A stretch of DNA of 64,000 bases, from IMG/VR virus record IMGVR_UViG_3300018036_000004, positions 1-64,000 of that record; one strand, written 5' to 3'. Each line of letters opens with the position of its first letter. The stretch's first letter is position 1. The position numbers and the translations under genes were made by a program. The stretch is from a virus. Below the pieces are notes generated by a model, which saw only the letters and a program-made list of their open reading frames with translations, was not told where the DNA came from and did not search any database. Shown one piece after another: positions 1,158 through 61,846 of this stretch.

Positions 1158-1787
1158 ATGGCAGTACCAAAGAAATACGAACACATTGATTTTAAGCCCC
1201 CTAAGACAGTAGCAGACGCTGCAAAGAAAGGTTTAGAGTACCGACGACAATCTGGTAAAGGTGGTTTAAGTGCCCAAGAGGCTGGAGAGAAAGGTATTGG
1301 TAGTGGTGTACAAAGGGCTGTGAATCTAAAGAACAGAAACAACCTTACAGTAGACACTATTAAGATGATGAGAGGTTTCTTTGCTAGACATGAAAAGAAT
1401 AAGTCTATAGCCCCTAAAAATAAAGATACTCCATGGGAAGACGCGGGTCATGTGGCTTGGTTGTTATGGGGCGGTGATCCTGGTAAGAAGTGGGTCGATG
1501 GTATCTTGAAACAGATGGAAGAAGCCGATAAGAAAGAAGAACAAGAACAGTCTAAGAAAGCCAGTGTTCTAAGTGTGGTGAAGGCCTACAATAAAACGGC
1601 TTCTACTTATCGTAAAGCGAAGATGTTAGAACTTACAGATAAGTTAACACCTAAGCAAGAAAAGGAACTGGATAAGTTAGTAAAACTTATGAATAAGGGA
1701 TATGTAGAACAGGCTTTTATACAAGCCACAATGTTAGGTTTATCTAAACACTTACAAAGTTTAGTCTTACAAAACCGAAAACAATAA
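1158..1787 (+). CDS. phage head-associated conserved domain protein
   Basis: PP..V...A.KGL..R / G..RA..L / RM..FF.RH / AW.LWGGD.G..W pattern, which I recognise from phage head-morphogenesis loci; C-terminal tag-like helix. Confidence 0.6.
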   Translation: MAVPKKYEHIDFKPPKTVADAAKKGLEYRRQSGKGGLSAQEAGEKGIGSGVQRAVNLKNRNNLTVDTIKMMRGFFARHEKNKSIAPKNKDTPWEDAGHVAWLLWGGDPGKKWVDGILKQMEEADKKEEQEQSKKASVLSVVKAYNKTASTYRKAKMLELTDKLTPKQEKELDKLVKLMNKGYVEQAFIQATMLGLSKHLQSLVLQNRKQ

Positions 1788-1836
1788 ATAGTCAATCCTT
1801 TGTATAATGTAGTAATACTATACAAAGGATTTTACC

Positions 1837-3552
1837 ATGCGTAGAAGGAAACTGTCAGACCTTAAACCACCCCTTGGAACAGATATGTGTTCCATTTATG
1901 ATCGTATGCATCGACAAATACCGGTACTTAAGGAAACTAAGGACCCCCAACTGGCAATTAAACTTCTAAATATGTACAACAAAATTGAAAAGGGAGAGGA
2001 CTTAGACAAGTCAGAAGAACATAAGATGTACTCTCCCTTCACAGAAACCTACTCGAATCTAGACTTCTTTAAGGAAGTCTATTTAACAACACATGCCCAA
2101 TACCGAATGGATCTTCGGGGTTTGTCTGTAAAGGAGTTAGGTCAAGTTTTAGGTAGATGGGAAGACAAGTTAAAAAATAACAGACAGGCTCGAAAGGCTT
2201 TTAATAAACTAGCACACTCTAACAATACATCAAAGAACTTAGAGGATAAAGTATTAAAAGTTAGATTGGCTTTAGAGTTAGCGTTCGACGAAAGTGTTAG
2301 GAAGGACAAAAGACAACCTAACAACATTAGTCAAGTAAGAGTTAAAACAATTTATTATCTAAGTGGTTATCAACAACAAATTCCACCTCTGCAGAATTGT
2401 GTGTCTAGGCCAACCAATTTTCCTCCAGAGGAAAATAGTATTATTACTGAAAATAATAGTTGGGAAACTGTTAAGTTAGGTAACAGCTTTATTTTTGGAC
2501 TTCTTAGGAACGCTCCACTAGAAGTACAAGAGATAGTTAAAAGACCTTTACACGAAAGTATTGACTTACCTTTTAACCCTTATCCAAGTTACGAAACTTC
2601 TATTAGTGAACTGGAACATATAAGATACATACAAGATACTACAGAAGATTGGAACTTTGTTAAATGGGCTGACGAGGATACTTATGGTATATTCGTAGAA
2701 TACTTAAACGAGTTAGGTGTATTGGAAGACGGTTTATATTTAGACATTGAAACCGTAGGAGAGTCTGTTATTCCTATCATCTTAAAGTTAAAGTATTACT
2801 ATAATAGACCAAGGCCTTACCAGTACGCACAAAAAGAAGGTATAAAACACTTTTCGATGGACTTTGAAACAGCCCGAACACCTAGTTATCCTAGTGGACA
2901 TACACTACAAGCCACTTATATAGCCGAGTACTTATCGGATAGGTTTCCACAATTTACAAGAGGACTTAAAGACTTAGGTCGTCGTATTTCTAAAACAAGA
3001 TTACAGGCGGGTGTTCATTTTCCAAGTGATTGTTTATTTGGAGCACACTTGGCTAGAGTACTATACAAAGGATTACCCACTACCATGAGAGTTGCTAATA
3101 TGGATCAACAGAAAATTATTCGTCTATTGGATACAGTGGACGAAAGTATTATTCACCAAGTTTTGTCTATCACAGATTCTTTAAACCTTGGGTTTCAGTT
3201 CAAACCTGGAGAAAACCTATTAGACTTAGTAATGGACGCTATTTACACTGAAGTGGCAGACAAGACACCTAATAAATGTTTAGATATGGAAAATATGGAA
3301 CTACTTAATGTTAAAGGTGTTGTAGATACAGACACATTAATAATTACAGGTAAATTAGACTGGAGTTTTTGGTTAGAAGGTGATTACCAACAAGGACAAT
3401 GTGCTTTAGCCTTACAAAAAGAGTATGGATCAGATACTGTATGGGAAGCCTATAATCATTTAGACAATACTACTGTATATGAAGTTGAAATAAAGAAAAT
3501 GTTTAGTGTTACATTTAAAAACGGTAGGATGTCTGTAAAAGTGAGTAAGTAA
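1837..3552 (+). CDS. multidomain protein with PAP2-family phosphatase domain
   Basis: KYYYNRPRP, PSYPSGH and SKTRLQAGVHFPSD are the three PAP2/haloperoxidase motifs; N-terminal THAQYRMDLRG resembles DUF4258. Confidence 0.8.
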   Translation: MRRRKLSDLKPPLGTDMCSIYDRMHRQIPVLKETKDPQLAIKLLNMYNKIEKGEDLDKSEEHKMYSPFTETYSNLDFFKEVYLTTHAQYRMDLRGLSVKELGQVLGRWEDKLKNNRQARKAFNKLAHSNNTSKNLEDKVLKVRLALELAFDESVRKDKRQPNNISQVRVKTIYYLSGYQQQIPPLQNCVSRPTNFPPEENSIITENNSWETVKLGNSFIFGLLRNAPLEVQEIVKRPLHESIDLPFNPYPSYETSISELEHIRYIQDTTEDWNFVKWADEDTYGIFVEYLNELGVLEDGLYLDIETVGESVIPIILKLKYYYNRPRPYQYAQKEGIKHFSMDFETARTPSYPSGHTLQATYIAEYLSDRFPQFTRGLKDLGRRISKTRLQAGVHFPSDCLFGAHLARVLYKGLPTTMRVANMDQQKIIRLLDTVDESIIHQVLSITDSLNLGFQFKPGENLLDLVMDAIYTEVADKTPNKCLDMENMELLNVKGVVDTDTLIITGKLDWSFWLEGDYQQGQCALALQKEYGSDTVWEAYNHLDNTTVYEVEIKKMFSVTFKNGRMSVKVSK

Positions 3553-3695
3553 TGAAAGACAAAAACTTAGACATAGAACATATCCATACTTGTTTAAGAG
3601 CTTTATTAAAAGATTATCCTAGTACAGAGGACCAGAAGAGGTTAGTACAAAGTATAATGAAGCAAGTTAAACAACTAAAAAATATGGAACAATGA
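3552..3695 (+). CDS. small hypothetical protein (47 aa), not in ORF track
   Basis: TAATG coupling to the upstream gene and ATGA coupling to the downstream gene. Confidence 0.55.
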   Translation: MKDKNLDIEHIHTCLRALLKDYPSTEDQKRLVQSIMKQVKQLKNMEQ

Positions 3696-4003
3696 AAGAC
3701 TTATACTTAATACAATCCGATGTTACCGGAGCCATAAAAGTAGGTGTGTCTAAAACACCTGAGAAAAGATTAAAACAACTACAAACAGGAAGCCCTTATA
3801 AGTTAAAACTTATAGGTGTGTTTAAAAACAAAGGGTCTTGTGAAAGGGGTTTACATCAACTTCTACAACCTTACAGACAAAACATTAACAGACAAAGTAC
3901 TAAGGGTGAGTGGTTTGACTTTATGTGTATGGGCAGTCTACCTTTATGGATAATAGAAAATCTAGATTTAGAAATTGTAAATACATGGTGGGATAATAGT
4001 TAG
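3692..4003 (+). CDS. GIY-YIG superfamily, T5orf172/MUG113-like protein
   Basis: YLIQ..IKVGVS..PEKRL.QLQTGSP..ERGLH..GEWF. Confidence 0.85.
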   Translation: MKDLYLIQSDVTGAIKVGVSKTPEKRLKQLQTGSPYKLKLIGVFKNKGSCERGLHQLLQPYRQNINRQSTKGEWFDFMCMGSLPLWIIENLDLEIVNTWWDNS

Positions 4004-4055
4004 TCTATAACTTTTATACAAACACAAGTATATAAACACAAATTAGGAGAAAACT

Positions 4056-4385
4056 ATGAGCAGAAACCATAATGGTTTAAAGTACGCTTTAAACGAAATT
4101 GTAGAGTATCTTTTAGATGTTAGACACGAGGCTAATAAAAAACTTAAAAGAGAATTAAGTTATGATACAGAGATCTATAGGGATTTAGAACAGTTAACTA
4201 ATGAGTTAGTACCTGGTGCCACTATGGAAAGATTATCGGATGATGAGTATGAAGAGTTATCTCAAGACCAAGACTGGATGGACTTGTATGAAACTTGGGG
4301 TTTCTATAATGATATGTACAATGTACCTAAAGAAGTGGAAGCTATTTTAAATAGAGCCGTTGCTAGTATTGAAAATCTAACCTAA
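4056..4385 (+). CDS. hypothetical protein
   Basis: AGGAG RBS; 109 aa ORF. Confidence 0.6.
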   Translation: MSRNHNGLKYALNEIVEYLLDVRHEANKKLKRELSYDTEIYRDLEQLTNELVPGATMERLSDDEYEELSQDQDWMDLYETWGFYNDMYNVPKEVEAILNRAVASIENLT

Positions 4386-4447
4386 CAACTACTTTATACA
4401 TAGTGTAAAAACTCCTGTGTACTATAAAAGGTCACAGGAGTTTTTTA

Positions 4448-4981
4448 ATGTCTAAGTATCAAATTATATATACAGACCCACCTTGGGACTACAAAGGTCA
4501 AACACAACACAATGGTAAAGGTGGTGTTAAAACAGGTGGTGCTATCACACACTATCCTACAATGACTCTAAAACAGTTAAAAGAGTTAAAGCCAATGATA
4601 GAAGACTTAGCGGACGCAGATAACTGTTTAATGTTTATGTGGACTAGTTCACCACACTTAGACCAAGCCATAGATTTATTAAAAGCGTGGGGCTTTGAGT
4701 GGGCTACTATCGCTTTTGTATGGGACAAAGTAAAAGTTAATCCAGGTTTCTATACTATGTCACAATGTGAGATAGTACTTTTAGGTAAGATGGGTAAGAT
4801 ACCAAAGCCTAGAGGGGCTAGAAACATTAGGCAGTTTTTATCCCAAGAAAGAACAAGACATAGTGCTAAACCACATGAGATTCGTAAGCGTATAGAACAG
4901 ATGTTTCCTACACAAAAGAAGATAGAAATGTTTGCACGAGAAAAGTGTGAAGGTTGGGACTGTTGGGGCAACGAAGTTTAA
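4448..4981 (+). CDS. MT-A70 family N6-adenine methyltransferase
   Basis: IYTDPPW, FMWT, WGF, HSAKP, IEMFAR, GWDCWGNE. Confidence 0.9.
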   Translation: MSKYQIIYTDPPWDYKGQTQHNGKGGVKTGGAITHYPTMTLKQLKELKPMIEDLADADNCLMFMWTSSPHLDQAIDLLKAWGFEWATIAFVWDKVKVNPGFYTMSQCEIVLLGKMGKIPKPRGARNIRQFLSQERTRHSAKPHEIRKRIEQMFPTQKKIEMFAREKCEGWDCWGNEV

Positions 4982-5069
4982 AATTAACATTAAACATATA
5001 AAATTAACCTTTAAGTAAGTATATGTAAGTGTTCGTTAGAACATAACTCTAATCCTTAAAGGAGAATAT

Positions 5070-5264
5070 ATGCGTAAAGTTTTAAGTTTGGTGGCTCTGG
5101 CTACTTTCCTTGTACTAGCCTTTGGTAGTAAAGGTAACCCTGAGTATCGTGCTTGTTACGATCGTTGTGTAGATCGTAAAAATAAAAAGTATGAAGGTAT
5201 GGGGGGTGCTAATAAGATAGACCTGCAAGTATGTGCCGAAAACTGTGACGCTCGTCACAAGTAA
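5070..5264 (+). CDS. small secreted/membrane-anchored Cys-rich protein
   Basis: AAGGAG RBS; N-terminal hydrophobic helix; CxxxC...CxxxC. Confidence 0.6.
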   Translation: MRKVLSLVALATFLVLAFGSKGNPEYRACYDRCVDRKNKKYEGMGGANKIDLQVCAENCDARHK

Positions 5265-5327
5265 GGTAGTCTTTCTATTGTAATAAGGAGATAGTTCACT
5301 ATCTCCTTTTAACTTTAAGGGTTTGTT

Positions 5328-5762
5328 ATGAAATTGTTTTATACGAGTTTAAATGTGTTTATACCATTACTACTTGGTGGTATTGTATATCTTACATACA
5401 GATCGTCTTGTTTGTTAATGTTTGAGTGGGTAGACTACTTACATCTTACAACATATATAGAGTGGTTAAGGGCTTATGGGTCTGGTCTTAACTACACACC
5501 TTCTAGATTTACCTTGTACTCTTTACCTGATGGTGTGTGGGTACATAGTATGACGGCTACTTATCTTAGTATATGGAAAGAGGACTATAAGAAAGGTTTG
5601 GTTTGGATACTACTGGGCTTACTATTAGGTGTTGGTAGTGAGTTAGGTCAACTGTTTGGGCTAGTAAGTGGTGTGTTCGACTTACAAGATGTGTTTGCTT
5701 ATGTACTATTCTTTATAATAGGTGGTGTAATACAAGTAACAATCAACAACAATAGGAGTTAA
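5328..5762 (+). CDS. integral membrane protein
   Basis: Several hydrophobic helices; YSLPDG..W and E..Q.....G.FD..D pattern. Confidence 0.6.
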   Translation: MKLFYTSLNVFIPLLLGGIVYLTYRSSCLLMFEWVDYLHLTTYIEWLRAYGSGLNYTPSRFTLYSLPDGVWVHSMTATYLSIWKEDYKKGLVWILLGLLLGVGSELGQLFGLVSGVFDLQDVFAYVLFFIIGGVIQVTINNNRS

Positions 5763-5764
5763 CA

Positions 5765-6322
5765 ATGGGTGGAAAAGGATACTCAAGTGATGACAATCGC
5801 TCTATGCAATTAAACGATAACAATGACAGATACTACTCATCAAGGGGGATAGATCGGGATGAAGATTATGACGATTACGAACATGGTGGTAGTTCTAATG
5901 TACAACACAAACCAGTATTCCAAGACTATGTACCTTTTGTAGACTGGTTCCCATATTTTAAGACTTGGATACAGAACATTAAGATTAATATAGGCGAGTC
6001 TTACGAGATTGAAGGTAAGTTGAATGGTCTTACTACGATTCAATATGTAGAACATTTTAAAGGTTTCAATCTTTGGAACAGTGAACATAAGAAGACATGG
6101 GACTACTACAAAACCAGAGCCTTGGTGGACTATTGTGTGGATAAAGGTTTAACTTATACTGTACAATATGGTAGTGTTGTGGAATACAAGGTACAGAACT
6201 GGTCTAACTTTGGATTTGAAGCACAAAACATTATGTATGTGAACCATGTTATCTACGAAAACAATAACCTACTGTTTCCTAACAACGCAGAGGATCTATT
6301 CTTAACTACAAGGGATTTATAA
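5765..6322 (+). CDS. hypothetical protein
   Basis: AGGAG RBS; N-terminal DNRSMQLN.NND.YYSSRG motif. Confidence 0.6.
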   Translation: MGGKGYSSDDNRSMQLNDNNDRYYSSRGIDRDEDYDDYEHGGSSNVQHKPVFQDYVPFVDWFPYFKTWIQNIKINIGESYEIEGKLNGLTTIQYVEHFKGFNLWNSEHKKTWDYYKTRALVDYCVDKGLTYTVQYGSVVEYKVQNWSNFGFEAQNIMYVNHVIYENNNLLFPNNAEDLFLTTRDL

Positions 6323-6373
6323 GTTAAGTGGTAGGTTTTGTGTAGTACTATATACAAAACCTAGGAGTGAAGA

Positions 6374-8437: not shown

Positions 8438-8498
8438 ATCGTATATAAGAAAAGACCCTTGTCTTTTGTGTAGTTTTTAATAAAATTACCCTTGTCTT

Positions 8499-9092: not shown

Positions 9093-9124
9093 AGTTACTA
9101 TAAGATTGTATAGTAAAGGGTGTA

Positions 9125-9385: not shown

Positions 9386-9389
9386 AGCT

Positions 9390-9635: not shown

Positions 9636-10133
9636 ATGAAAGTAATTTTCTTAGACCATGACGGTGTTGTCTGTTTACAACATCAATGGGGTACAAGATT
9701 TAAGACTGGTGATATGTTTGACCAGTTTGACCCTAAAGCCGTAAAAGTTTTAAACAGTATCCTACAAGAAGTACAGTGTGAGATAGTTGTGTCTAGTGAT
9801 TGGCGCTTACATTGTGACCTAGACCACATGAAACAAACATATAGGGATAGGGGTGTCTTACAGTATCCTTATGACTACACACCTAAGATAAGTTCGTACA
9901 GAGAAGATGTGTGGAATGAAACTCAATCCTATAAAGATCAAGTGTCAATAGACGCTAAGGTGAGAGAGTTTGAAATTAGAGAGTGGTTAGTCCAACACCC
10001 TTATGTCACACATTGGGTAGCCATAGACGATCTTAACATGAAAGGGTTATCGAACTTTGTACATACAAGATACCCTTTGGAAGGTATTAAGCAAACTGGT
10101 ATAAAAGACAAGGTGTTGTCTTTTCTAAGGTAA
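9636..10133 (+). CDS. HAD-family phosphatase (Swiss-army-knife RNA-repair-type HAD)
   Basis: KVIFLDHDGV, IVVSSDWR, WVAIDD. Confidence 0.85.
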   Translation: MKVIFLDHDGVVCLQHQWGTRFKTGDMFDQFDPKAVKVLNSILQEVQCEIVVSSDWRLHCDLDHMKQTYRDRGVLQYPYDYTPKISSYREDVWNETQSYKDQVSIDAKVREFEIREWLVQHPYVTHWVAIDDLNMKGLSNFVHTRYPLEGIKQTGIKDKVLSFLR

Positions 10134-10189: not shown

Positions 10190-10969
10190 ATGAGTACATA
10201 CAAAACTTTACTTACAGAAGTAAGAACCCTTAAAAAAGTAGCTAATGATGACTTTAAAGAAAACCTTTTAGAGTTACTTAACAGTGAGGATCTAAGTCAG
10301 GTTAACCAAGCCTTATCTTTGAACGACGCGTTAAACATACTTAGCGACCAAGAAGTAGCAGACATCTTAATTCCAAAAACACATGATAATGGTTTTTACC
10401 GACTCGTCTACTGGGAAAATATGGATAGTTTTGGTTGGGAACTTTTGAAAAAGTATCCTAATCACCCAGAGTGGAAACAGTTGGATACACTAGTAAGTAT
10501 TGGGGAAGGAACTGGCAGTGTTCCTAAGGAAATAGAGAACTTAACTAACTTGACAGAGTTGTCTTTACGTAAGGCCAACGTACCTAAAGAGATAGGAAAC
10601 TTAACTAACTTGAAAGATCTAACTCTTTCAAGTTGTAACCTTACTAGCCTACCTAGTTGGATAGGAAACTTAAAGAACTTGACATACTTGGGTTTATATA
10701 GTAACAACCTATCTACTCTACCCAAAGAGATTGGCAACCTTACTAACTTGGACGCTTTAGGGTTAGACTTTAATAAACTAACAAGTCTACCTAAGGAAAT
10801 AGGAAACCTAACTAACTTGGAAAAGTTGTGGTTAAACGGAAACAAACTAACAAGTTTACCGGAAGAATTAGGGAAATTGCGTCGTAGTTTAAAAGTAGTA
10901 GAACTATATAACAATTATATTAAGAAAGACGAACTTCCAAATTGGCTTAAGCGAATTGTAAGTATGTAA
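10190..10969 (+). CDS. leucine-rich repeat protein 1
   Basis: 23-aa LRRs ([22 protein letters not shown]) after a shared leader and tag. Confidence 0.93.
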   Translation: MSTYKTLLTEVRTLKKVANDDFKENLLELLNSEDLSQVNQALSLNDALNILSDQEVADILIPKTHDNGFYRLVYWENMDSFGWELLKKYPNHPEWKQLDTLVSIGEGTGSVPKEIENLTNLTELSLRKANVPKEIGNLTNLKDLTLSSCNLTSLPSWIGNLKNLTYLGLYSNNLSTLPKEIGNLTNLDALGLDFNKLTSLPKEIGNLTNLEKLWLNGNKLTSLPEELGKLRRSLKVVELYNNYIKKDELPNWLKRIVSM

Positions 10970-11009: not shown

Positions 11010-11726
11010 ATGAGAAGAAAACAAGCAAGTGATCCATTAAACCAAACTTATGTAAGCTTGGTAGAATTCGATCTACTTACAGGGGCTGAAGGTGCAAGGA
11101 TACATCGCAGGGAACAGGACGGATCTCCTTATGTTAGTGAAAAGGACTTGAACTTTTACGCTAAACAAGATTTAGAATTCTGGGAAGAGTACATTATGTA
11201 CACACCGGAGTGGGAAAAGGCTATGGAAGCTTTAGAGGAACTCTACGATACTTCTGACGTAGAGATTTATCCTAAGGCTGAGACTAGATCGATTGTTGTG
11301 TACTCAATAGAAAATGAAGAATACGATATGCGTGTTAGTGACTCCAAGGCTTGGGGTTATATGGAAAAACAAAAGAACAACATGAAAAGTATATATAACT
11401 CTGTTAAGGGTTCACAAGTCCTTAGACAGTTACAAGATACCCACAACAAGGCAAGTAAGGCACAAGTAGATAAAGTAAGACAGTCGTTGTTTACCTTTGA
11501 CTTAAGAAATATCAATCAGATGATAGACATTGCGTATGCGTTGGAAGACAAAAAGATTAACGATGTTATTAGGGAGTTTCTGGACTTCACACCATTAGAT
11601 ATAAATAGCGGTACTGTTTGGATGACTGTACAAATATTTACAAGGTGGAAAATTGCTACTCGTGGGGGTCTATCTTCTTGGGAAGACTCCGAGGAAGAAT
11701 CCTTTGACGATTCTGACTGGTATTAA
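11010..11726 (+). CDS. hypothetical protein with KQAS leader and internal tag-like helix
   Basis: AAGGAG RBS; MRRKQAS; LFTFDLRNINQMIDIAYAL. Confidence 0.65.
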   Translation: MRRKQASDPLNQTYVSLVEFDLLTGAEGARIHRREQDGSPYVSEKDLNFYAKQDLEFWEEYIMYTPEWEKAMEALEELYDTSDVEIYPKAETRSIVVYSIENEEYDMRVSDSKAWGYMEKQKNNMKSIYNSVKGSQVLRQLQDTHNKASKAQVDKVRQSLFTFDLRNINQMIDIAYALEDKKINDVIREFLDFTPLDINSGTVWMTVQIFTRWKIATRGGLSSWEDSEEESFDDSDWY

Positions 11727-11784: not shown

Positions 11785-12393
11785 ATGTTAACTGCAATGG
11801 GCGATGTAATGCGTGAAGCATACAAACGAGGATGGATTACTACTAGAGATGGAAACATATCGTTGGTACAATCTAACAGAGAAACATTCTACATCACACC
11901 TAGTGGTTGGCGTAAAACTATCTTACATCCTGAACATATCTTACGCATACCTATTGTGGATAACGAGTTAGAACTTAAAGAAGGTATGAACCCTAGTGGT
12001 GAACTAGAAATGCATTGGAACTTACAACAACCCAATAAGTTTCGAACAAGAGCCGTGGTACATCTACATCCTACTTATACTATAAGTGCTATGTTAAAAG
12101 GTTTCGATTTACAGTCAATGTCTAAACACTTTCCAGAGTTGTCTAGATATACAAGAGTAGGACCTACTGTACCAGTATTGCCTGTAATCTCTACAGAGTT
12201 AGCATGGGCAACTGCAGGGAACTTTTATATAGACAGTGATGGTAAAGTTAAGTATGACATTGTAGGGCAAGCAGGACATGGTGTTTGTGCTATTGGAGGG
12301 AACCCTTGGGATGCTTTTGAGCATATAGAGCGCTTAGAACATATCTGTCAGATAGTATTGGCTAGTGGTGTTGATCCAAAAGACTTACAATAA
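11785..12393 (+). CDS. class II aldolase/adducin family protein
   Basis: GNISL, YITPSG, PSGELEMH, VVHLHP, GHGV metal-binding motifs. Confidence 0.88.
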   Translation: MLTAMGDVMREAYKRGWITTRDGNISLVQSNRETFYITPSGWRKTILHPEHILRIPIVDNELELKEGMNPSGELEMHWNLQQPNKFRTRAVVHLHPTYTISAMLKGFDLQSMSKHFPELSRYTRVGPTVPVLPVISTELAWATAGNFYIDSDGKVKYDIVGQAGHGVCAIGGNPWDAFEHIERLEHICQIVLASGVDPKDLQ

Positions 12394-12453: not shown

Positions 12454-13101
12454 ATGACTACTTATAAAACATTATTACAAGAAGTAAGAACCCTTAAAAA
12501 AGTAGCAAGCGGTGACTTTAAAAAGAAACTTTTAAGTTTACTTAATAGTGATGATCCTAGTCAGGTTAACCAAGCCCTATCTTTAAATGATACCCTAGGT
12601 ATTCTTAGTGACCAAGAAATAGGTGACTGGTCTATACCTACAGTTATTAATAGAAACCGAAACGTGGAAGAACATTGGAAAACCTTAGACAGTTTAGGTT
12701 GGGTACTTTTAAAAGCCATACCTAATCATCCTATGTGGAGTAGCCTTACAGCTTTAGGGTGCTACGGTGGCAACATTACAAGTTTACCTAGTGAAATAGG
12801 AAACCTAACAAACTTAAAAACCTTGTTCTTAAATAATAACAATCTAACAAGTCTACCTAAAGAAATAGGAAACTTAAAGAACTTGGAAACGTTGTACGTA
12901 GAAGAAAACAATCTAACAAGTATCCCTAGTTCTATTGGTAACCTAAATAAGTTAAAGTTCTTTCGGTTAAGTGATAACAATCTAACAAGTCTACCCAGTT
13001 CTAGTGGTAACCTAACTAAGTTGAGAGCGTTAACCTTAGACAATAACAAACTAACAATTGATGATGTACCAGAAAACCTTAGAAAGGTTACAAAAATCTA
13101 A
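12454..13101 (+). CDS. leucine-rich repeat protein 2
   Basis: Same N-terminus and LRR consensus as 10190. Confidence 0.93.
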
Positions 13102-13159: not shown

Positions 13160-13879
13160 ATGACTACTTATAAATCCTTACTTACAGAAGTTCGTACTCT
13201 TAAAAAGTTAGCCAGTGAAGATTTTAAAGAAAGTCTTTTAGAGTTAATTAACAGTGGAGATATACAAGACATTAACCATGCTTTATTTTTAAACGAGGAC
13301 TTAGAAATCCTTACAGATCAAGAAATTGGTGATTTACTCTTTCCACAAGTTATTAATAGTAAAAGCGGGAAGACTGTATTTGGGGCATGGCTCCAAGACG
13401 GATTAGGTTGGATGCTTTTAGAAACTTTACCTAATCACCCTATGTGGAAAAACTTAACTAAATTGAGTCTACTTGGTAGAGGACTAACAAGTTTACCAAG
13501 TTCAATAGAAAACTTAAAGAACTTGAAAAGTTTGTTCTTATATGATAACGAATTAACAAGTTTACCTAAAGAACTTGAAAACCTAAAGAACTTGTTATAC
13601 TTGAACTTAATGAATAACGACCTAAAAAGTTTACCTAGTGCAATAGGAAACTTAACTAACTTGAAAGAGTTGAACTTAAGGAATAACAAACTATCCAATT
13701 TACCAAGTTGGATAGGTAATTTAAAGAACTTGGAATACTTGAGCTTAGAGAATAACAACCTAACAAGTTTACCTAAAGAAATAGGAAACTTAACTAACTT
13801 GAAAGTCTTGAACTTAAACAATAACAGCCTAACAATAGAGGATGTTCCGGAGAACATTAGATCTATCCTTTTTGATTAG
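13160..13879 (+). CDS. leucine-rich repeat protein 3
   Basis: Same N-terminus and LRR consensus as 10190. Confidence 0.93.
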   Translation: MTTYKSLLTEVRTLKKLASEDFKESLLELINSGDIQDINHALFLNEDLEILTDQEIGDLLFPQVINSKSGKTVFGAWLQDGLGWMLLETLPNHPMWKNLTKLSLLGRGLTSLPSSIENLKNLKSLFLYDNELTSLPKELENLKNLLYLNLMNNDLKSLPSAIGNLTNLKELNLRNNKLSNLPSWIGNLKNLEYLSLENNNLTSLPKEIGNLTNLKVLNLNNNSLTIEDVPENIRSILFD

Positions 13880-15213: not shown

Positions 15214-15286
15214 GGGGCATTAACTCAGTTGGGAGAGTGTCACCCTTGCAAGGTGAAAGTCATCAGTTCGAATCTGATATGCTCCA
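15214..15286 (+). tRNA. tRNA-Ala(TGC)
   Basis: Cloverleaf: acceptor GGGGCAT/ATGCTCC with G3:U70; anticodon loop CTTGCAA; T-loop TTCGAAT; discriminator A; CCA not encoded. Confidence 0.95.
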
Positions 15287-15312
15287 CTTTCTTTTAAAAC
15301 ATAGGAAGACTT

Positions 15313-16214: not shown

Positions 16215-16799
16215 GTGGTGAAAACTATGTCGTATGAAGAAGCCTCTAAACTTTGGGAACTGATATTTACTAAAGACTTAGATAACATTAACCAAGCCGT
16301 TATGTTAAATGAAGTACTAAACATTATACCTTTACAAGATATACAAGACGCTCTATATCCACAATTTCTTTATTCTCAAACTCAACAACAGTTTATTAAC
16401 TTTGAAGACCTAGAAGACTTACTACTTAAAGTCTTTGACTATGTAGAACTAGACCCAGAAGACTATGACAGTATCTCTACTTTGTACAAAGACAAGTCCT
16501 TTCCTCTTACTTTGATTACAAACCCACCCTCTTTGTTAACACCTGAACCCGAACATATACCTCATCCAGATACTGTATCTGGACAAAGAGAATGGAAACA
16601 CTTAAAAGATAAGGCTTATAAATACACAGACAAACTAAATACTAACATACCACAGTTAAAAGGTATGACAGCAGAAGACTTTGTTACGGAAACACATAAA
16701 CAATATGTAAAACTAAATACTAAACTAGAAGCCTTACTGAATAAACTGGCTGAAGATCCTAACCTGTGGCAAACTACTACGGGTATCGTTTATAGATAG
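16215..16799 (+). CDS. hypothetical protein with N-terminal tag helix
   Basis: LWELIFTKDLDNINQAVMLNEVLNII. Confidence 0.65.
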   Translation: MVKTMSYEEASKLWELIFTKDLDNINQAVMLNEVLNIIPLQDIQDALYPQFLYSQTQQQFINFEDLEDLLLKVFDYVELDPEDYDSISTLYKDKSFPLTLITNPPSLLTPEPEHIPHPDTVSGQREWKHLKDKAYKYTDKLNTNIPQLKGMTAEDFVTETHKQYVKLNTKLEALLNKLAEDPNLWQTTTGIVYR

Positions 16800-52419: not shown

Positions 52420-52992
52420 TTACAGTCGATAGTTTGTTGGAACTTTTACCTTTAGGATTCCTTTGGTTTCATTATCTATATCCCAACCAAGACCTCCCCT
52501 TCGTTCAACATCAAATGCTCTCGACCAGTCTTCCATATCCTCTAGAAAAGTATTATAAAAGTTATCACGGTCACGACCAAGATTGTACAATGTCCCAGAA
52601 GATGTAGTGATAGTGTATTCGAACTGCACATAAGGCATTCTATTCATTTCTATAATTTCGAAATCACTTACAACCTGTAATTCACGACGGTTTCGGCCGC
52701 GGCTATAAGACCTAGCTAATGTTGTAACCTTGTCCCGAACCAAGTCTAACCACTGTTGGGGTGTTCCAGCATCACTTAACCTTTCAGTTTCCGCTTGTAA
52801 AAATGTCTTATACCCTTCTAAGTGTCCTAGTAAGTTATCCTTTTCTCTTCCAGTCTGACCACGCATATAGTGCTTCAAAGTTTCTAAGGCTGAAAGTGTT
52901 TCCCTTATATTTATTAATTGTTCCTGTTTAGAAGCCAGTTTCTTTAATTGTTGAACTTCTTTAAGAAGTTGTTTTGCTGTTAATTTTCTCAT
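52420..52992 (-). CDS. hypothetical protein with KKLAS leader
   Basis: MRKLTAKQLLKEVQQLKKLAS. Confidence 0.7.
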   Translation of the reverse strand: MRKLTAKQLLKEVQQLKKLASKQEQLINIRETLSALETLKHYMRGQTGREKDNLLGHLEGYKTFLQAETERLSDAGTPQQWLDLVRDKVTTLARSYSRGRNRRELQVVSDFEIIEMNRMPYVQFEYTITTSSGTLYNLGRDRDNFYNTFLEDMEDWSRAFDVERRGGLGWDIDNETKGILKVKVPTNYRL

Positions 52993-53047: not shown

Positions 53048-53710
53048 CTAATATGCGTCTTTATTGTCTAGGTAATTCATTAGAATTTTTGGTGCTTCTT
53101 TATCAAACACAGATTTAAAATGTGTAAAACACTTATCCATCGACTCATCTATATTTGGAGTAAGAATATTTTTCTCAACATCGTAAGGGTCTTGAAACAA
53201 CCCGTAAAAATCACATTCGCTCTTATTGGTCCCATCTCTTGCGATCACATAATTGAACAAAATGAAATCACGACCCACGACTAACTTCATCTCTACATGT
53301 CCCCAAGCACCTTTACCCCCTATATTAGATTTTATTTTCCAATCTAAACCTGTTTTCTTAGCCCAATTTTCCATATAAGACAGGATTTTACCATAGGTGT
53401 CTTCAATGGCTTGTTTAGCGTCTTGGTCACATTCAGAACCTTGTTTCCACCAATCTATACAAACCTTTTGTTTTTGTACTCGAATAGGCTGTGTTCTTGT
53501 ATAGGTGACATAGGCTATGTCACCTTGAACATTAATGTCTTCGATATAATGTTGTGAGACATGCTGAGCAGCCCAAGACTCTACTTGACCCAACAGGTCT
53601 TCTTCGTCTTCGTAAACGAAAACATAATCTTCTAACCAGTCTTTAGAGGCCAGTTTCTTTAATTGTTGAACTTCAAGAAGAAGTTGTTTTGCTGTCAGTT
53701 TTTTATTCAT
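53048..53710 (-). CDS. hypothetical protein with KKLAS leader
   Basis: MNKKLTAKQLLLEVQQLKKLAS. Confidence 0.7.
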   Translation of the reverse strand: MNKKLTAKQLLLEVQQLKKLASKDWLEDYVFVYEDEEDLLGQVESWAAQHVSQHYIEDINVQGDIAYVTYTRTQPIRVQKQKVCIDWWKQGSECDQDAKQAIEDTYGKILSYMENWAKKTGLDWKIKSNIGGKGAWGHVEMKLVVGRDFILFNYVIARDGTNKSECDFYGLFQDPYDVEKNILTPNIDESMDKCFTHFKSVFDKEAPKILMNYLDNKDAY

Positions 53711-55229: not shown

Positions 55230-55404
55230 TTCGATTTCTTCGTTATACTCATAAGGACCACCCTGCCCCTCATAAGAACCTCAACCCCTTTTGAGTCTGC
55301 GTTGTTGTTTCCACATTGTTTTCACCGTATTAGTTTGTCTATCTAAGTTGTATAGTAATAACATTTTATGTAGACGATAGTGTTTCTATTGAGAGGAGTG
55401 TTAC

Positions 55405-55794
55405 ATGAATATACAGTTTAAATTAAGTTTAGAATCTGAATACGAACTGTATGATTATTACGGGTATCCAGTAATACCACAAAAGTTATTTTCGGATATT
55501 TACTATAAACATAATGTTAAAACTAACTCTGTGGCTTTTGTTTCAAGACAAGACAATAAGTATCTTATGTTAATGGTACCTATACCTAAATACTTAAACA
55601 GAGACGACCTTGAAAGAGTTACTTATCGTAATGACTTTTACTTTAGATGTGAGTTTATGTCTAATATAGAAGGTAATCACGATAAGTGTTTCTTTATGGT
55701 TAAGGCTTTAGATGTAGACACTATACCTTATGTAGATACAAGTATCTGGGGTATATTTAATAGACAAATACAAGAGTTAAAGAGTAAAGAATGA
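55405..55794 (+). CDS. hypothetical protein
   Basis: GAGGAG RBS. Confidence 0.6.
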   Translation: MNIQFKLSLESEYELYDYYGYPVIPQKLFSDIYYKHNVKTNSVAFVSRQDNKYLMLMVPIPKYLNRDDLERVTYRNDFYFRCEFMSNIEGNHDKCFFMVKALDVDTIPYVDTSIWGIFNRQIQELKSKE

Positions 55795-56591: not shown

Positions 56592-57239
56592 TTACCACCC
56601 ATAAAAGGACAATACATCTTCTAGGACTTCCTTATCACCCCAAAAGTTCTTCTTTAATTGTTTAATAGCCTCTGGGTCTTGGAATAGTTTGTCACCATAG
56701 TCTTTAAAGGACTTATCAATAGTCTTAAAGTGTTTTTCAATTAAAGATGTAAGTTGTTTAGTGTTGTTGAATATAGTTAAAGGGATGAAAAAGTTTATAG
56801 GTAAGTATACTTTTTTGCTAACAAAAGAGTCTTGTAATGATAACGGACCATCATCCATAATTTCAGCTTCGTATTGTTTATTTCGTTTTAGGTATTCTCT
56901 TGGGATTACACTATACACATTAAAGTACTTATTGTGTACAACATTACAATAGAGGACAAGTTCATCGTCCTCTATTGACACAGAAACCTCAAATACACAA
57001 GCTAGTTGTAAGTGTCTGGTGTTTACTACCGTAAACACATTACCTTCGTCTTGTTCCATAACACTAAAATTACCAGACCAAGGTAAGTTTTCAAAGTCGT
57101 TTATACCATTAACGATGTCTATTAGTGGTTGTAGTTGGGGTAATAAGTCTAAGGAATCTGCTAACAATTCCGCTTGTTGTATTAAAGAAGGATCGTTTCT
57201 TAATACTAATTCTTGTAGTTTTTCAATTTCTGAGGACAT
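56592..57239 (-). CDS. hypothetical protein with N-terminal tag helix
   Basis: KLQELVLRNDPSLIQQAELLADSLDL. Confidence 0.7.
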   Translation of the reverse strand: MSSEIEKLQELVLRNDPSLIQQAELLADSLDLLPQLQPLIDIVNGINDFENLPWSGNFSVMEQDEGNVFTVVNTRHLQLACVFEVSVSIEDDELVLYCNVVHNKYFNVYSVIPREYLKRNKQYEAEIMDDGPLSLQDSFVSKKVYLPINFFIPLTIFNNTKQLTSLIEKHFKTIDKSFKDYGDKLFQDPEAIKQLKKNFWGDKEVLEDVLSFYGW

Positions 57240-57282
57240 ATTTTCTCCAATAGTTAGTAAATATTAAAGAACTATTAAAGAA

Positions 57283-57513
57283 CTATTGTGAGTCTATATA
57301 GGCCTGTATATCTTCTATAGCTTGGTCCACTGTACTAGGTATTTCATCATAAGATAAGTAGGAATCCAAACTATCCGAAATATATTGTAAGGCTAGTTCT
57401 AAAGGTTGTTCTAACTTAATACAAGCTAAAACAGCACATGCTATGGCTTGGAAAAATTGTGGATTGTTCTTTTCTTGTTCAACCCACTTTTGAAACTCTT
57501 GTTCAATACTCAT
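57283..57513 (-). CDS. hypothetical protein
   Basis: ATGA coupling with the PRTase gene. Confidence 0.55.
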   Translation of the reverse strand: MSIEQEFQKWVEQEKNNPQFFQAIACAVLACIKLEQPLELALQYISDSLDSYLSYDEIPSTVDQAIEDIQAYIDSQ

Positions 57514-57932
57514 AGTTCCCACCAGAACTCAATCCAAGACCCATCGTGTAAGTGTAACCAATCCACATTATGTAAATTGTCCTTACCATAAACACATAAA
57601 GTATTCATTTTACCTTTAAACTGTTTTAAGTCGAACTGAATAGTTTGAATGGTATGTCCTGTATCGTAAATATCATCTAACAATAAATAGGACTTACTAG
57701 ATTGTAAGTCTGCATCATGAATAAAAGATACGGCTTTATCTTTATTGTCGTAAGTCTGGTACTTAACAATAGACACAGGTAAGTCGTGTATGTTACTTAG
57801 ATGCACACCCATAGGTAAACTACCTCTATAAACACACACAATATGGTCAATGTTATTTTCCTTAATGTACTCACCTATTCTTTGTATGTCCGTCTGATAC
57901 ATATCTATAGAATATAAAGTTTTATTTATCAT
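57510..57932 (-). CDS. type I phosphoribosyltransferase (purine salvage-like)
   Basis: VYRG, PRPP loop LLLDDIYDTGHT, WI.F.WE. Confidence 0.85.
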   Translation of the reverse strand: MINKTLYSIDMYQTDIQRIGEYIKENNIDHIVCVYRGSLPMGVHLSNIHDLPVSIVKYQTYDNKDKAVSFIHDADLQSSKSYLLLDDIYDTGHTIQTIQFDLKQFKGKMNTLCVYGKDNLHNVDWLHLHDGSWIEFWWEL

Positions 57933-57933
57933 G

Positions 57934-58893
57934 TCATTCTCCTAACTCTAAATAATGTAAAACCATTTCTCTAACTTCATTAGATACTTCTAAGTTATTA
58001 ATACTGTCGTGTAAAGTGTCTTCTGTTTTAGTGTTCAGTTGTTCTTGTAATTTGTGTACAAAAGAATCCATCTCCATCTGTCTCTCTACTTGGCGTCTAC
58101 GACCTTCCATATCAAACACTTGCTCTGGAGCCTTAACTTTTAAAGGCTTTTGTGTACATACCACACCTTCTTTTGTACATTCTATTAACACACAACAAGG
58201 TATACGATTAACTTCGTCTTCAGATAAAGAACCACGCGTTAATGAGCCTGTATTAATAATAGTCTTATTACCTACTTGTGTAATACCTTGGTTCTTATGC
58301 CAGTGTCCAAAACAAAACACATCAGGCTCTAAGTCTTCTAAGTCACTATACTTAATAATGTCTTCACCCTCAAACATGGTACCGCCTTTCTCACTGGCTA
58401 GTATATGGGCTACACATATTAGTATATCTTCGTTCCCTTTCTTTATATGTTCAAACAAAGACTTGTCATAACTAGGACCTGGATAAGGAACACCAACTAC
58501 TCGTACTTTAAAGCCATCCTTTTCAAACACTACCTCATGTTCGTTATACAATCTTTTAAAGATACCTGTAGCATACAACACACCTAAAGGTTGTTGTGGT
58601 AGGAACTTATAATCTCCATACACACTGTCATGATTACCAGGGCAACAGTAAACGGGTATCTTGTAATCAATATGGTGTTCACTTGTCTTAATAATAAGTT
58701 TATGAGAGTTTTTTGTAGGAGACTTAACATGAAAAAAGTCACCCCCATCTAAGATAGCCATTGCGTTATTTGTGTAGGCTATATCCCTAACTTGTCCTAG
58801 TTTTTCTAATACTGTATCATCCCAGTCATCTAAACGAGAACTAGGTTTATGATCAGACATATGAACATCCGTTCGCCATACTAAGTTAATCAT
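57934..58893 (-). CDS. sbcD: SbcD/Mre11-like metallophosphoesterase nuclease
   Basis: TDVH, GGDFF, PGNHD, FGHWH, N.GS..R. Confidence 0.88.
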   Translation of the reverse strand: MINLVWRTDVHMSDHKPSSRLDDWDDTVLEKLGQVRDIAYTNNAMAILDGGDFFHVKSPTKNSHKLIIKTSEHHIDYKIPVYCCPGNHDSVYGDYKFLPQQPLGVLYATGIFKRLYNEHEVVFEKDGFKVRVVGVPYPGPSYDKSLFEHIKKGNEDILICVAHILASEKGGTMFEGEDIIKYSDLEDLEPDVFCFGHWHKNQGITQVGNKTIINTGSLTRGSLSEDEVNRIPCCVLIECTKEGVVCTQKPLKVKAPEQVFDMEGRRRQVERQMEMDSFVHKLQEQLNTKTEDTLHDSINNLEVSNEVREMVLHYLELGE

Positions 58894-60058
58894 TGTGTAC
58901 CTTTTTACATACAGGACATTCACCTAACTCACCAAGAGTATCCTGTATAAAACCTTGTACTTTATGATACTGTATCTCACACTCTTGTATAGAGTGTTGT
59001 TGTGTATTTATTTGTGTTTGTACACTCTTAAGTTGTTCACTTAACTTAAGTACTTTACTTAAAGTACTTTGTATTTTTAATAACTTTGTACTATCTGGTA
59101 ACTCTGGTATGTCTTGTTGATAAGTGTCCACTAAGTCCACACATTGGACATATCTAGTGTTTAAGGCTTGTACCCTTTGTATCTTACTTACAAGTTGTGT
59201 AAAGTCTGTTGTGGGTACTTGTACCTCTTTTAAACCACTATACTTATTCAAAGTACTTTTACAATTGTTTTGTCTTGTAAGTAGTTGTCCTACTTTAGTT
59301 AAACCTAAATGTAATCTTTCGACTTTACTTTTATCTGGTATTGTTAAACCTTCTAAGTCTTTATACTGTTCTACAACCTGTTTACAAGAGTTGTACTTAT
59401 CTTGTAAATCCTGTACTTGTGTAATTGTAGTTTGTATCTTTTGTAGTTTAAGTTGTAACAGTTCCAAGCCTTCAAACATACTTTCAAGAGTATCAAAGCC
59501 TTTATACACTTGTAAGGCTTCTTCTTGTTTAACTAAGTCTTGTTCTCTTACTTTTAACTCACTAGTTACAGATCGTTTATCCTTTTCCGCTAGCCTTAAA
59601 GCATTATTTAAACGACCTACCTTTTCAACATCAGATAAGGCTTCTCCTAATACAGCACCTGTTTCGTTTACAAGAAATAAAGTTCCTTGGAACTGTTTTG
59701 CTATCTGTGGCCAGATTACAGTATTACCGGCTTGAATCGGTTTAACACCTAAATCATTTAGTTCTTCAGGAACACCTCGTCCTACAGTTTCTAACTTATA
59801 ACCATTAATAGTATAAGCGTTTACTTTAGGTCCCTTTTCCCAAGTTACAGTTTGACCATCTTCAAACGATAAGTCTACTGTTAACTGCTTCTGTCCATGA
59901 CGAACTAAAGGGCCACTAGGAGAGTTTTCAAACACACCCCTAATAGCCCTCATTAACGCCGTCTTACCAGAGTTGTTGGGACCTGTAACTACTGTTAGAC
60001 CATTAATGTCTAGTGTTACATCTTTAAGGCTTTGGAAATTCTGTACTCTAACTTTCAT
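58886..60058 (-). CDS. SbcC/Rad50-like ATPase, N-terminal half only
   Basis: NFQS, GPNNSGKT, Q-loop, coiled coil, terminal CPVC; no signature motif or Walker B. Confidence 0.85.
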   Translation of the reverse strand: MKVRVQNFQSLKDVTLDINGLTVVTGPNNSGKTALMRAIRGVFENSPSGPLVRHGQKQLTVDLSFEDGQTVTWEKGPKVNAYTINGYKLETVGRGVPEELNDLGVKPIQAGNTVIWPQIAKQFQGTLFLVNETGAVLGEALSDVEKVGRLNNALRLAEKDKRSVTSELKVREQDLVKQEEALQVYKGFDTLESMFEGLELLQLKLQKIQTTITQVQDLQDKYNSCKQVVEQYKDLEGLTIPDKSKVERLHLGLTKVGQLLTRQNNCKSTLNKYSGLKEVQVPTTDFTQLVSKIQRVQALNTRYVQCVDLVDTYQQDIPELPDSTKLLKIQSTLSKVLKLSEQLKSVQTQINTQQHSIQECEIQYHKVQGFIQDTLGELGECPVCKKVHND

Positions 60059-60105
60059 AATATATAGTACAATATAAGTACTAAAAGTTAGAGGGTTATT
60101 CTAAT

Positions 60106-60645
60106 TTATCTTGTCCCAGGTATTAGTTTAAGGAACTTAGGGTCGTCCATTAGTTTCTTTAAAATAGGCTCTAACCTTGTTAAGTTTTTCTCAAAAGTAG
60201 TATCAATAAAGTCCAACATATCGTCGTAAGACATCTCTAATACATCTGTGGATACTACGGGTACTTTTCTGTTTAGGATTTGAGTTTGTACAAACTCAAA
60301 GGCCTTATTATTACCTCTCCAAGATCCAGCAGAAGAAGGATTGATTGTATACATAACACCATTACCTGTAAGTTTTACACCTGTATGTAACTCTCCATCC
60401 CTAATGATAGCGGTTGGCTCTAAAGACACATATAAACCAAAGTTGGTAGACATCCATTCCATATAGGTAGATTCTAACTCTGTATTTTTAATTTCTATTA
60501 ACTGTGTAAGTCTGTAATTGTATACCGCGGAATTAAAAACATCCCTTTCCTGTTTTGTTAAAGGTAAAGAATCCGCTAACACAATTGCTTGTGTTACTAA
60601 GGAATCGTCTTCTTTTTCTACTAAATCCAATAACTTATGTAACAT
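60106..60645 (-). CDS. hypothetical protein with N-terminal tag helix
   Basis: KLLDLVEKEDDSLVTQAIVLADSLPL. Confidence 0.7.
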   Translation of the reverse strand: MLHKLLDLVEKEDDSLVTQAIVLADSLPLTKQERDVFNSAVYNYRLTQLIEIKNTELESTYMEWMSTNFGLYVSLEPTAIIRDGELHTGVKLTGNGVMYTINPSSAGSWRGNNKAFEFVQTQILNRKVPVVSTDVLEMSYDDMLDFIDTTFEKNLTRLEPILKKLMDDPKFLKLIPGTR

Positions 60646-60674
60646 TGTCTTATACTCCCTTTATTAAACTAAGA

Positions 60675-61271
60675 CTATTTACACAAAGGTGTAGCCTTAT
60701 TTAATCGTGTCAGTTTAGGGTCCATTGCTAAGAACTTGGTTTTAAGGTGAACCTTAGCAGATATGTCATTCCAATAGTGTTCCACTACATCTTCCACTTT
60801 ATCCCAAGTATCGTCTACTGTGGTATCTATAGTTAGTTCCTTAAAGGCACCTTTAAGTTCTTTCTCTGCATACTTAAATGCCTTGTTACCGATAGAGCTT
60901 TGATAGTACCAGTTACCGTTCTTAGGGCAAAAGTAGATCATGTCGTCAAACCTTATACCCACACGAATAATGTTTGGGGCAATACTTACAGGCTCGATTT
61001 GGAAACTGAATGAGTAAGAGTCACTTTTACTCCCATCAGCAAAACCTAAACCTGGATTTTGTATACTGCGACCAACACTAACATAGTCATTAGAACCCCA
61101 ACCATTAAAGAATATGTTGGGTAGCACTAAGGCAATCTCTGTTTCCAACGCATAAATCTCTTGGGCATTAAGACCTACTAAGTACATAAGTTCTTTTACT
61201 TGTTCAATGTAAGCGAGGTTACCTGTTTCAACAAGTCTCATTAACTTTATTGCGTCTTCTGATAATCTCAT
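60675..61271 (-). CDS. hypothetical protein with N-terminal tag helix
   Basis: KLMRLVETGNLAYIEQVKELMYLVGL. Confidence 0.7.
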   Translation of the reverse strand: MRLSEDAIKLMRLVETGNLAYIEQVKELMYLVGLNAQEIYALETEIALVLPNIFFNGWGSNDYVSVGRSIQNPGLGFADGSKSDSYSFSFQIEPVSIAPNIIRVGIRFDDMIYFCPKNGNWYYQSSIGNKAFKYAEKELKGAFKELTIDTTVDDTWDKVEDVVEHYWNDISAKVHLKTKFLAMDPKLTRLNKATPLCK

Positions 61272-61273
61272 TC

Positions 61274-61846
61274 TTAAAATCCTGCGTAGGATCTAAAAGC
61301 CGATTGATTAACCCATCTTTGGGCTTCCCCTGCTAAACGGTTAATACGATTACGAAAGTATCTTTCTGCATACTTAACAAAGTCTTCGTATTCTGTATCC
61401 CACTTAACTTCAAACAAACCAGGTCCTAACTTTTTGTTAAGAACCTTAATAGCAAAATCATCGGCTCTTTTATTGACATTAGTTTCATTGTTAGAACGAA
61501 AAGGTCCTACAGTAGATCCTCCCTCAAATACAGGCTGAACCTTAATTAAAGGCATGTTTGGATTAGGGTAGAAACCACCAACATAAACAGGAAACATATA
61601 TTCATACTCATCGTCGTCTGTTCGGATTACAAGAACATCTTGTAAGTCATACCGACCATAGTCGTCCCAAATCATTTCAGTGAAAGCTATCTTTTTCCAA
61701 TCTACGATAAGTTCCTTAATGTACTGTTCTTCATCTCTAGGCAACTGTATGTCTTCTAATAAAAGAACAGCCTGATTTACAAACGTTTCATTACCATTAG
61801 TAATTAAGTCTTTAAGTTTTTGAGCGTCTTCTGATAAGTTACGCAT
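61274..61846 (-). CDS. hypothetical protein with N-terminal tag helix
   Basis: KLKDLITNGNETFVNQAVLLLEDIQL. Confidence 0.7.
   Translation of the reverse strand: MRNLSEDAQKLKDLITNGNETFVNQAVLLLEDIQLPRDEEQYIKELIVDWKKIAFTEMIWDDYGRYDLQDVLVIRTDDDEYEYMFPVYVGGFYPNPNMPLIKVQPVFEGGSTVGPFRSNNETNVNKRADDFAIKVLNKKLGPGLFEVKWDTEYEDFVKYAERYFRNRINRLAGEAQRWVNQSAFRSYAGF

Follow-up and report, generated by a model that had tools for sequence, protein, structure and literature searches.

A clade-restricted N-terminal module, predicted to form an alpha-hairpin, on three classes of accessory proteins in an uncultured phage

Inspection of the first 64 kb (64,000 nucleotides, hereafter the window) of the single 102,476-bp phage contig IMGVR_UViG_3300018036_000004 revealed a short N-terminal element, here termed the tag, on accessory proteins that are partly unrelated in the rest of their sequence. 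It is carried by eight open reading frames (ORFs) of the window, named by their first position: 10190, 12454, 13160, 16215, 56592, 60106, 60675, and 61274. In all eight, the tag lies within the first 4-25 residues as an N-terminal helix-turn-helix of 30-36 aa, and the copies align over 36 columns with zero gaps. A ninth copy, located outside the window, is found at the N-terminus of a 533-aa protein (contig 90293-91894); it was detected at 25.9 bits (E 3.5e-7) and was not part of the first model, which was built from the window tags. Judged from sequence comparison, the tag is a genuine clade-restricted N-terminal module on three cargo classes, namely leucine-rich repeat (LRR) proteins, a family of small proteins designated family B, and the 533-aa protein. 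We tentatively propose that it might serve as a docking handle.

Alignment of the 21 tags found in the clade, 20 of them strictly N-terminal, discloses conserved columns K5, L6, L9, [LIV]10, [ST]12, D14, [IV]18, Q20, A21, L24, [DE]26, and L28. L24 is present in all copies (21/21), followed by L9 (20/21), Q20 and A21 (19/21 each), and D14 (16/21). Helix A is characterized by the pattern K-L-x-x-L-[LIV], the capped turn by [ST]-x-D, and helix B by [IV]-N-Q-A-x-x-L-x-[DE]-x-L. The hairpin is followed in most copies by another short helix, the third, which a [ST]-x-Q-E capping box opens.

For cross-validation with hidden Markov models (HMMs), each cargo class was held out in turn, and the contig's 791 six-frame ORFs were used as the target. 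The held-out LRR trio (10190, 12454, and 13160) was recovered at E 5e-9 to 9e-5 and the held-out 533-aa protein at E 9e-9. Of family B, 16215 was found at E 2e-6, and 60106, 56592, and 61274 at E 0.010-0.018, ranked just behind the training set; 60675 was missed. Scores of the LRR trio, the 533-aa protein, and 16215 reach 18-32 bits when held out, and those of 60106, 56592, and 61274 only 10-11 bits. In 40 shuffles of the 791 ORFs, the top score was 5.5 +/- 1.7 bits, with a maximum of 12.3. Furthermore, a profile search through 1.84 billion representative proteins returned only 19 at E<1e-3, three of which are repeat proteins matched piecewise, while the remaining 16 are proteins of this phage or of a few metagenomic relatives. 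Each of these 16 has a single tag, which lies within residues 1-25 except in one protein. The results support the tag as a specific conserved module rather than a generic amphipathic helix, in line with the sequence-only reading that first pointed to the recurring pattern. A chance likeness of amphipathic helices, which would fit the noise-level scores of the two weakest cited copies (1158 and 11010), is refuted for the nine core copies by the recovery of each held-out class, by a shuffle maximum that the LRR trio, the 533-aa protein, and 16215 exceed, and by the scarcity of database matches, and has next to no probability left.

Tags of the LRR trio lie on the forward strand and are supported by the ungapped alignment. 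That of ORF 10190-10969 covers 36 aa, residues 21-56 (10250..10357; held-out HMM E 4.7e-9), in a protein matching Pfam LRR_14, LRR_4, and LRR_8. The other two are at 12514..12621 in ORF 12454-13101 (held-out E 7e-8; Pfam LRR) and at 13220..13327 in ORF 13160-13879 (held-out E 9e-5), for which a structural model is described below. The family-B protein ORF 16215-16799 has its tag at 16236..16343 on the same strand, with E 8e-7 in an LRR-only HMM and E 2e-6 when held out. On the reverse strand, tags are located at 57126..57233 in ORF 56592-57239, a family-B-like protein with the most divergent body (held-out E 0.016, rank 7 of 791; BLAST E 0.004 to the tag of 60106), at 60541..60645 in ORF 60106-60645 (held-out E 0.010; modelled as a hairpin), at 61152..61259 in ORF 60675-61271, and at 61724..61831 in ORF 61274-61846 (held-out E 0.018). 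The tag of 60675 is the most divergent and was not recovered by a model combining LRR and 533-aa tags; its membership is based on its register in the ungapped alignment, on its place at the N-terminus, and on the homology of the body with 60106. Its orthologue P0025 retains the tag.

About 12 copies had been proposed originally. Eight of the cited ORFs stand, ungapped over the 36 columns, and 1837 is a probable addition. ORF 1837-3552 has a weak internal copy at residues 422-457 (3100..3207, forward strand; 9.7-14.9 bits, E 9e-4 to 0.045). A PAP2 domain at residues 317-410 is followed by R-V-A-N and then directly by this copy, which is also the best-scoring non-member; for these two reasons it is called probable, with 9.7 bits being reached by one of 40 shuffles. 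A search for a stand-alone homologue of the C-terminal part of ORF 1837 found none. In 43781, the match is marginal and confined to the second helix (7.6 bits, E about 0.03-0.2, a score that 3 of 40 shuffles reach). The segments in 1158 and 11010 (E 0.4-7) are at noise level in HMM scoring and were rejected, and that of 1158 is more like the basic linker repeated in the 533-aa family. The HMM scan found no copy between 17.4 and 40.2 kb, in agreement with the sequence-only reading.

Two further similarities were recorded in the same scans. Residues ~137-151 of a RecD2-like helicase (contig 66065-68395, reverse strand) resemble half a copy, comprised of the first helix and an S-G-D turn (E 0.001-0.05), probably by chance. 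In addition, the N-terminal ~85 residues of the PAP2 protein 1837 and of 11010 (window 1837-2100 and 11010-11270) are alike, with 29% identity and E 6e-4 in a small database, and both ORFs begin with M-R-R-[RK].

Structure prediction, which the sequence-only reading had suggested as a check, gives the tag as an alpha-hairpin in two independent AlphaFold2 (AF2) models. In the LRR protein 13160 (predicted local distance difference test, pLDDT, 89.6; predicted template modelling score, pTM, 0.83), a helix ending at residue 30 is followed by a turn, a helix at residues 35-48, and another at residues 53-63. The LRR fold spans residues 52-239, with Z 18-22 against Leptospira LRR proteins, SHOC2, and LRRC8. 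In 60106, tag helices at residues 2-10 and 14-26 are predicted at pLDDT about 90, in a whole model of pLDDT 64.5 that is too weak for assignment of the family-B fold. The tag is thus confidently predicted to be a small folded N-terminal alpha-hairpin. A Glu recurs after the tag. It fits equally a [ST]-x-x-E capping box with which the AF2 helix at 53-63 would open, and its candidacy as a protease site was dropped.

The order of helix A, a turn with Asp, and helix B recalls the geometry of HEAT and HEAT_PBS repeats. With the ESM Atlas model of residues 20-72 of 10190 as a query, HEAT-type proteins made up five of ten look-alike rows, at template modelling (TM) scores of 0.55-0.63 normalized by query. 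We regard this as a look-alike only; a TM score on 45 residues weighs little. The tag differs from HEAT repeats in being present as a single copy per protein, with no tandem array; Pfam HEAT models did not match the nine 36-aa tags up to E 10 in hmmscan, nor the whole proteins at E 0.1 or below.

Cargos of the tag had been considered as about 12 unrelated proteins, which turned out to be incorrect. They make up three classes, and the window copies belong to three LRR paralogues and five family-B paralogues. The LRR trio shares 47-53% identity and is assigned on Pfam models above cut-off (LRR_14 at 69-105 bits, LRR_4, and LRR_8) together with the LRR solenoid fold. Family B has five diverged members (16215, 56592, 60106, 60675, and 61274). 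With the tag removed, 60106 and 16215 are linked at E 0.003, jackhmmer brings in 60675, and the link to 61274 is borderline at E 0.013; when the tag is kept, 60106 and 61274 align over their full length in BLAST (21% identity over 190 aa, E 9e-4). ORF 56592 has in common with the family its length, element order, and a C-terminal helix ending in D-P. Comparison of family B with ESM features and BFVD found nothing; its homologues are confined to close relatives, and every one of them is tagged. Full-length homology within one family, under which the original reading was to fall, applies in part, inside the LRR trio and inside family B but not across classes: no homology beyond the tag was found between LRR proteins, family B, and the 533-aa protein.

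The 533-aa family is itself modular. Beta-rich modules come and go among its homologues (P0013, P0014, and P0021), and between them a basic helix, [RK]-[LM]-T-[KP]-[RK]-Q-A-S-[RK]-x-L-D-x-L, recurs in 3-5 copies, in a polyprotein-like layout. The small C-terminal modules, rich in beta structure, that are present in 14217, 43781, 1837, the 533-aa family, and P0015 show no mutual sequence link. Three more unannotated cargo classes were added by relatives (P0015/P0017, P0022, and P0019); the classes number three, unrelated, in this genome and 6-7 across the clade, as among the 16 database tag bearers.

The proposal that the module is portable was borne out by ORF 16215. Its tag region matches 13160 in BLAST over 56 aa (E 2e-6), its body matches 60106, and the ORF is, by sequence, a chimera of an LRR-type tag and a family-B body, which implies that the tag has moved. 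The true start of 16215 is probably the ATG at 16227; the orthologues P0008 and P0024 begin at the corresponding ATG. DNA identity of the tag between cargo classes is only 35-58%, which means that any exchanges are old and that the tag was kept by selection while cargos drifted. Taken with the strong conservation of columns, the low identity indicates old divergence under long-standing purifying selection. None of the cargos is nearly as well conserved as the tag.

Distinct from the tag is a leader of 22 residues that contains L-L-x-E-V-x-x-[LI]-K-K-x-A-[SGNA]. In the LRR trio it ends with K-K-x-A-[SN] immediately upstream of the tag (10190-10255, 12454-12519, and 13160-13225, forward strand). 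The leader HMM also locates it in untagged ORFs 52420-52992 and 53048-53710 (52927-52992 and 53645-53710, reverse strand) and in untagged contig genes 92280-93002 and 93833-94573. These seven proteins score at E 1e-14 to 6e-12, nothing else falls below E 0.38, and L-L-x-E-V is present in 7/7. The leader-bearing 52420 and 53048 adjoin endolysin, sheath-like, and other large, beta-rich structural-looking genes, while 92280 and 93833 flank a Peptidase_C39_2 protein (contig 93007-93843; Pfam E 5e-9, above cut-off), 5 kb upstream of the terminase gene. This protein contains an internal leader-like piece and is a candidate leader peptidase. The tag and the leader are separable, as P0016, an LRR homologue, is tagged but leaderless and the leader of P0012 is of another kind.

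The first ten residues of the LRR trio resemble the capsid targeting sequence (CTS) of phage T4, sharing with internal proteins IpII and IpIII M1, T3, Y4, and E10 in addition to hydrophobic positions 7 and 8, although ten residues are too few to prove homology. In T4, CTS positions 4 and 7 serve targeting, and positions 8 and 10 processing (PMC9026906). Because of this resemblance, the leader of the LRR trio is a likelier signal for packaging in the T4 sense than the tag is.

The tag can nevertheless be compared with the CTS of IPI, IPII, and IPIII in its general plan: one constant element stands at the N-terminus of proteins that are otherwise unrelated, evolve fast, are non-essential, and are encoded in small gene arrays. 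The CTS suffices for loading foreign proteins into the T4 head (PMC9026906). It is a propeptide of 10-19 residues removed by gp21 after L/I-x-E, whereas the tag is a folded hairpin of 30-36 residues (45 with the third helix), starts 4-25 residues after Met, and shows no sequence similarity to it. The tag is thus neither a short element at the extreme N-terminus nor closed by a conserved prohead-protease site (column 8, in helix A, is E in 6/21), and the element that resembles the CTS here is the leader of the LRR trio. In the giant phages phiKZ and SPN3US, propeptides of ejection or inner-body proteins are cleaved after Glu in S/A/G-x-E motifs. Many packaged proteins of these phages belong to paralogue families with N-terminal regions processed by the prohead protease (PMC5694885, PMC7411985, PMC10052503). 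The tagged proteins have no sequence relation to the phiKZ and SPN3US ejection or inner-body families.

A constant folded N-terminal hairpin on diverging, partly unrelated domains would be best explained by binding to one conserved partner. The tag would accordingly be a docking handle that ties diversifying accessory proteins to this partner. It has stayed constant, while the domains behind it, namely the LRR binders, the small acidic alpha/beta proteins of family B, and the modular 533-aa protein, have diverged past recognition. A virion or prohead component would be the most likely class of partner, and the protein set would then be carried on or in the particle. We infer both the common partner and the virion link, and consider a docking hairpin with a virion-associated partner plausible, if somewhat short of an even chance. 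Consistent with it, tagged paralogues are arranged in tandem arrays like the internal-protein loci of T4, and candidate processing marks occur in two of the three cargo classes, as the leader ending in K-x-A-[SN] of the LRR trio and as K-R-Q-A-S junctions between modules of the 533-aa protein. The gene of the latter stands just upstream of the leader/peptidase cluster, 7 kb upstream of the terminase gene. An extended version, in which the hairpin, unrelated to the T4 CTS, would be a general loading or display address for swappable delivered binders, with the CTS-like leader and C39-like peptidase as a second, processing-dependent layer, is doubtful.

Constant N-terminal parts that dock to the virion and carry a swappable C-terminal end are familiar from phage receptor-binding proteins and MuF-type polymorphic phage toxins. 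Their anchor domains are much larger than the tag, and PHROGs and BFVD searches disclosed no homology to them.

Several observations weigh against docking to the virion. The proteins of family B have an acidic net charge (-4 to -14) and no K-x-A-S sites, while T4 internal proteins are basic (PMC9026906). Family-B genes are located between UvsX-like and SbcCD-like genes, behind a promoter-like G-T-A-T-A-T-A-A common to helicase, methylase, and clamp-loader genes. The end of the tag shows no conserved cleavage site, its recurring Glu fitting a helix capping box, and the LRR trio could already be addressed by its leader. A T4-type S77 prohead protease (PF03420) was sought without a match in the contig and in the records of four relatives, all of them incomplete, and the control genomes stayed unmatched too. 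Finally, no untagged family-B homologue was found in 5.8 billion clusters; the sharing of the tag by five of the nine copies is explained by common descent alone.

The last point leads to the explanation that the tag has no common function and is an N-terminal subdomain which two paralogue families inherited, which one or two old fusions of genes spread, and which was retained for capping or stabilising its cargo. It accounts well for 8/9 copies being in two paralogue families, for the lack of untagged family-B homologues, and for the age of the tags deduced from their nucleotide identity, and the HEAT-type look-alikes in the ESM Atlas agree with it, since such hairpins are often caps. The conservation of the tag far above that of any cargo, and its presence on at least six cargo classes of different folds in the clade, speak against it; moreover, LRR alignments begin only at residue 52-60, from which it follows that the tag is not the LRR N-cap itself. 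On balance, we find this explanation improbable. We give similarly little credence to self-association, in which two tags would pair as a four-helix bundle, in the manner of RIIa/DPY-30 docking-dimerisation domains, and join tagged proteins into homo- or hetero-oligomers. The core of a lone two-helix hairpin is too small for stability, the conserved positions are mostly hydrophobic and on one face per helix, and the module is N-terminal on unrelated cargos, all of which would suit pairing; however, AF2 monomers already reach pLDDT 84-92 for the hairpin, with the third helix packing after it, and polar positions (K5, D14, N19, and Q20) are conserved as well.

Somewhat less remote, although still unlikely, is an adaptor that acts outside the virion, the hairpin docking variable binding domains to a common intracellular hub, be it an enzyme of the phage or host or a phage compartment. 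LRR and family-B domains would bring different targets to this hub, by analogy with the F-box in F-box/LRR proteins. The likeness is one of architecture only, with an N-terminal helical motif of ~40 residues for docking and, behind it, variable domains that bind by LRR or otherwise, matched here by a constant module of 30-45 aa in front of variable protein-binding domains including LRR. Such a role would suit the position of family-B genes inside recombination/replication clusters with the same promoter-like motif, a folded tag without a conserved cleavage site, and a packaging- or processing-like signal that resides in the leader and not in the tag. The F-box, however, belongs to the eukaryotic ubiquitin system and has no known Skp1-like partner here, the tag matched no Pfam family by sequence, F-box, U-box, and SOCS included, and the LRR leader and polyprotein-like 533-aa protein suggest virion processing. 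Docking to a virion-associated partner is kept as our preferred, tentative reading.

The promoter-like motif consists of C-A-A-T-A-A-A-T and, after it, G-T-A-T-A-T-A-A, and shows a 12-13-fold enrichment upstream of genes. It is located at window ~61888-61915 and ~62381-62407 on the reverse strand, and also upstream of 1158, 4056, 8499, 65276, 66065, 71439, 76075, and 96973 (contig positions). A 24-nt copy is duplicated before 61916 and 61274, with a hairpin and T-run after each. No temporal class can be assigned from the motif, as G-T-A-T-A-T-A-A precedes replication genes as well as a gene upstream of the terminase cluster. The GTG listed as the start of ORF 61916-62383 (reverse strand) is probably not the true one. 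An ATG lies 14 codons further downstream, behind the promoter-like motif, and the N-terminus that begins there includes a leader-like piece, K-R-L-A-N. In the early island (window 18-38 kb), the 8-mers G-T-G-G-A-A-G-G, T-T-C-C-T-A-T-A, and A-A-A-A-A-A-T-A are 7-11-fold enriched upstream of genes and stem from the repeated promoter-hairpin cassette of the island.

Among genes of the contig are those for a UvsX-like recombinase, SbcCD-like nuclease subunits, a RecD2/Dda-like helicase, ribonucleotide reductase, clamp loader, PhoH, large terminase, and endolysin, and for a 1716-aa protein with a tail-sheath-like C-terminus. Both contig ends interrupt ORFs, and there is no terminal overlap. Its IMG/VR relatives, found with the recombinase, are contigs of up to 297 kb, rated 67% complete, and the nearest GenBank record is an uncultured 485-kb phage (51% identity), so that the contig is a fragment of a large uncultured phage. 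DNA of this phage is present in salt-marsh metagenomes. Within the LRR/family-B accessory cluster, a tRNA-Ala (TGC) gene was found at window 15214-15287 (forward strand), and RNA-library contigs have a loose end at 15282. Genes for a class II aldolase-like protein (window 11785-12393) and an HAD_SAK_2 protein, an RNA-repair type HAD (window 9636-10133), are interspersed among the LRR genes. RNA-library contigs over the LRR genes are partial, at depth 1-5, and may be DNA carry-over, so they do not prove transcription.

Outside this contig, the distribution of the tag is narrow. Searches with the tag in Pfam, PDB sequences, and ESM features found nothing, and GenBank phages gave no DNA or protein match to the tagged region. 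A set of 26 IMG/VR loci around UvsX homologues (60-81% identity) contained neither the tag nor a homologue of any tagged protein, and IMG/VR scans with the 533-aa protein, 16215, and the LRR N-terminus found no relatives. The back-translated pattern I-N-Q-A-x-x-L-N-[DE] gave 61 loci in IMG/VR, all of them pattern-only matches. The tag profile had no match in five relatives' records, in a search whose first look may miss a 36-position model, and a metagenome scan yielded one 1.7-kb contig. Metagenomic tag-bearing proteins are encoded on contigs of up to 76 kb and 267 kb, and one contig of 267 kb has exactly the proteins described here.

If the tag is only an inherited subdomain, the finding shrinks to two lineage-specific paralogue families. 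If it is a docking address, it would represent a second answer, with a structure of its own, to the task for which T4 uses the CTS, and would explain how a large phage keeps its fast-diversifying accessory proteins, LRR proteins among them, tied to one machine. It would also provide a sequence-only handle for spotting delivered or displayed proteins of uncultured large phages, and might be fused to other proteins so that laboratory phage systems deliver them.

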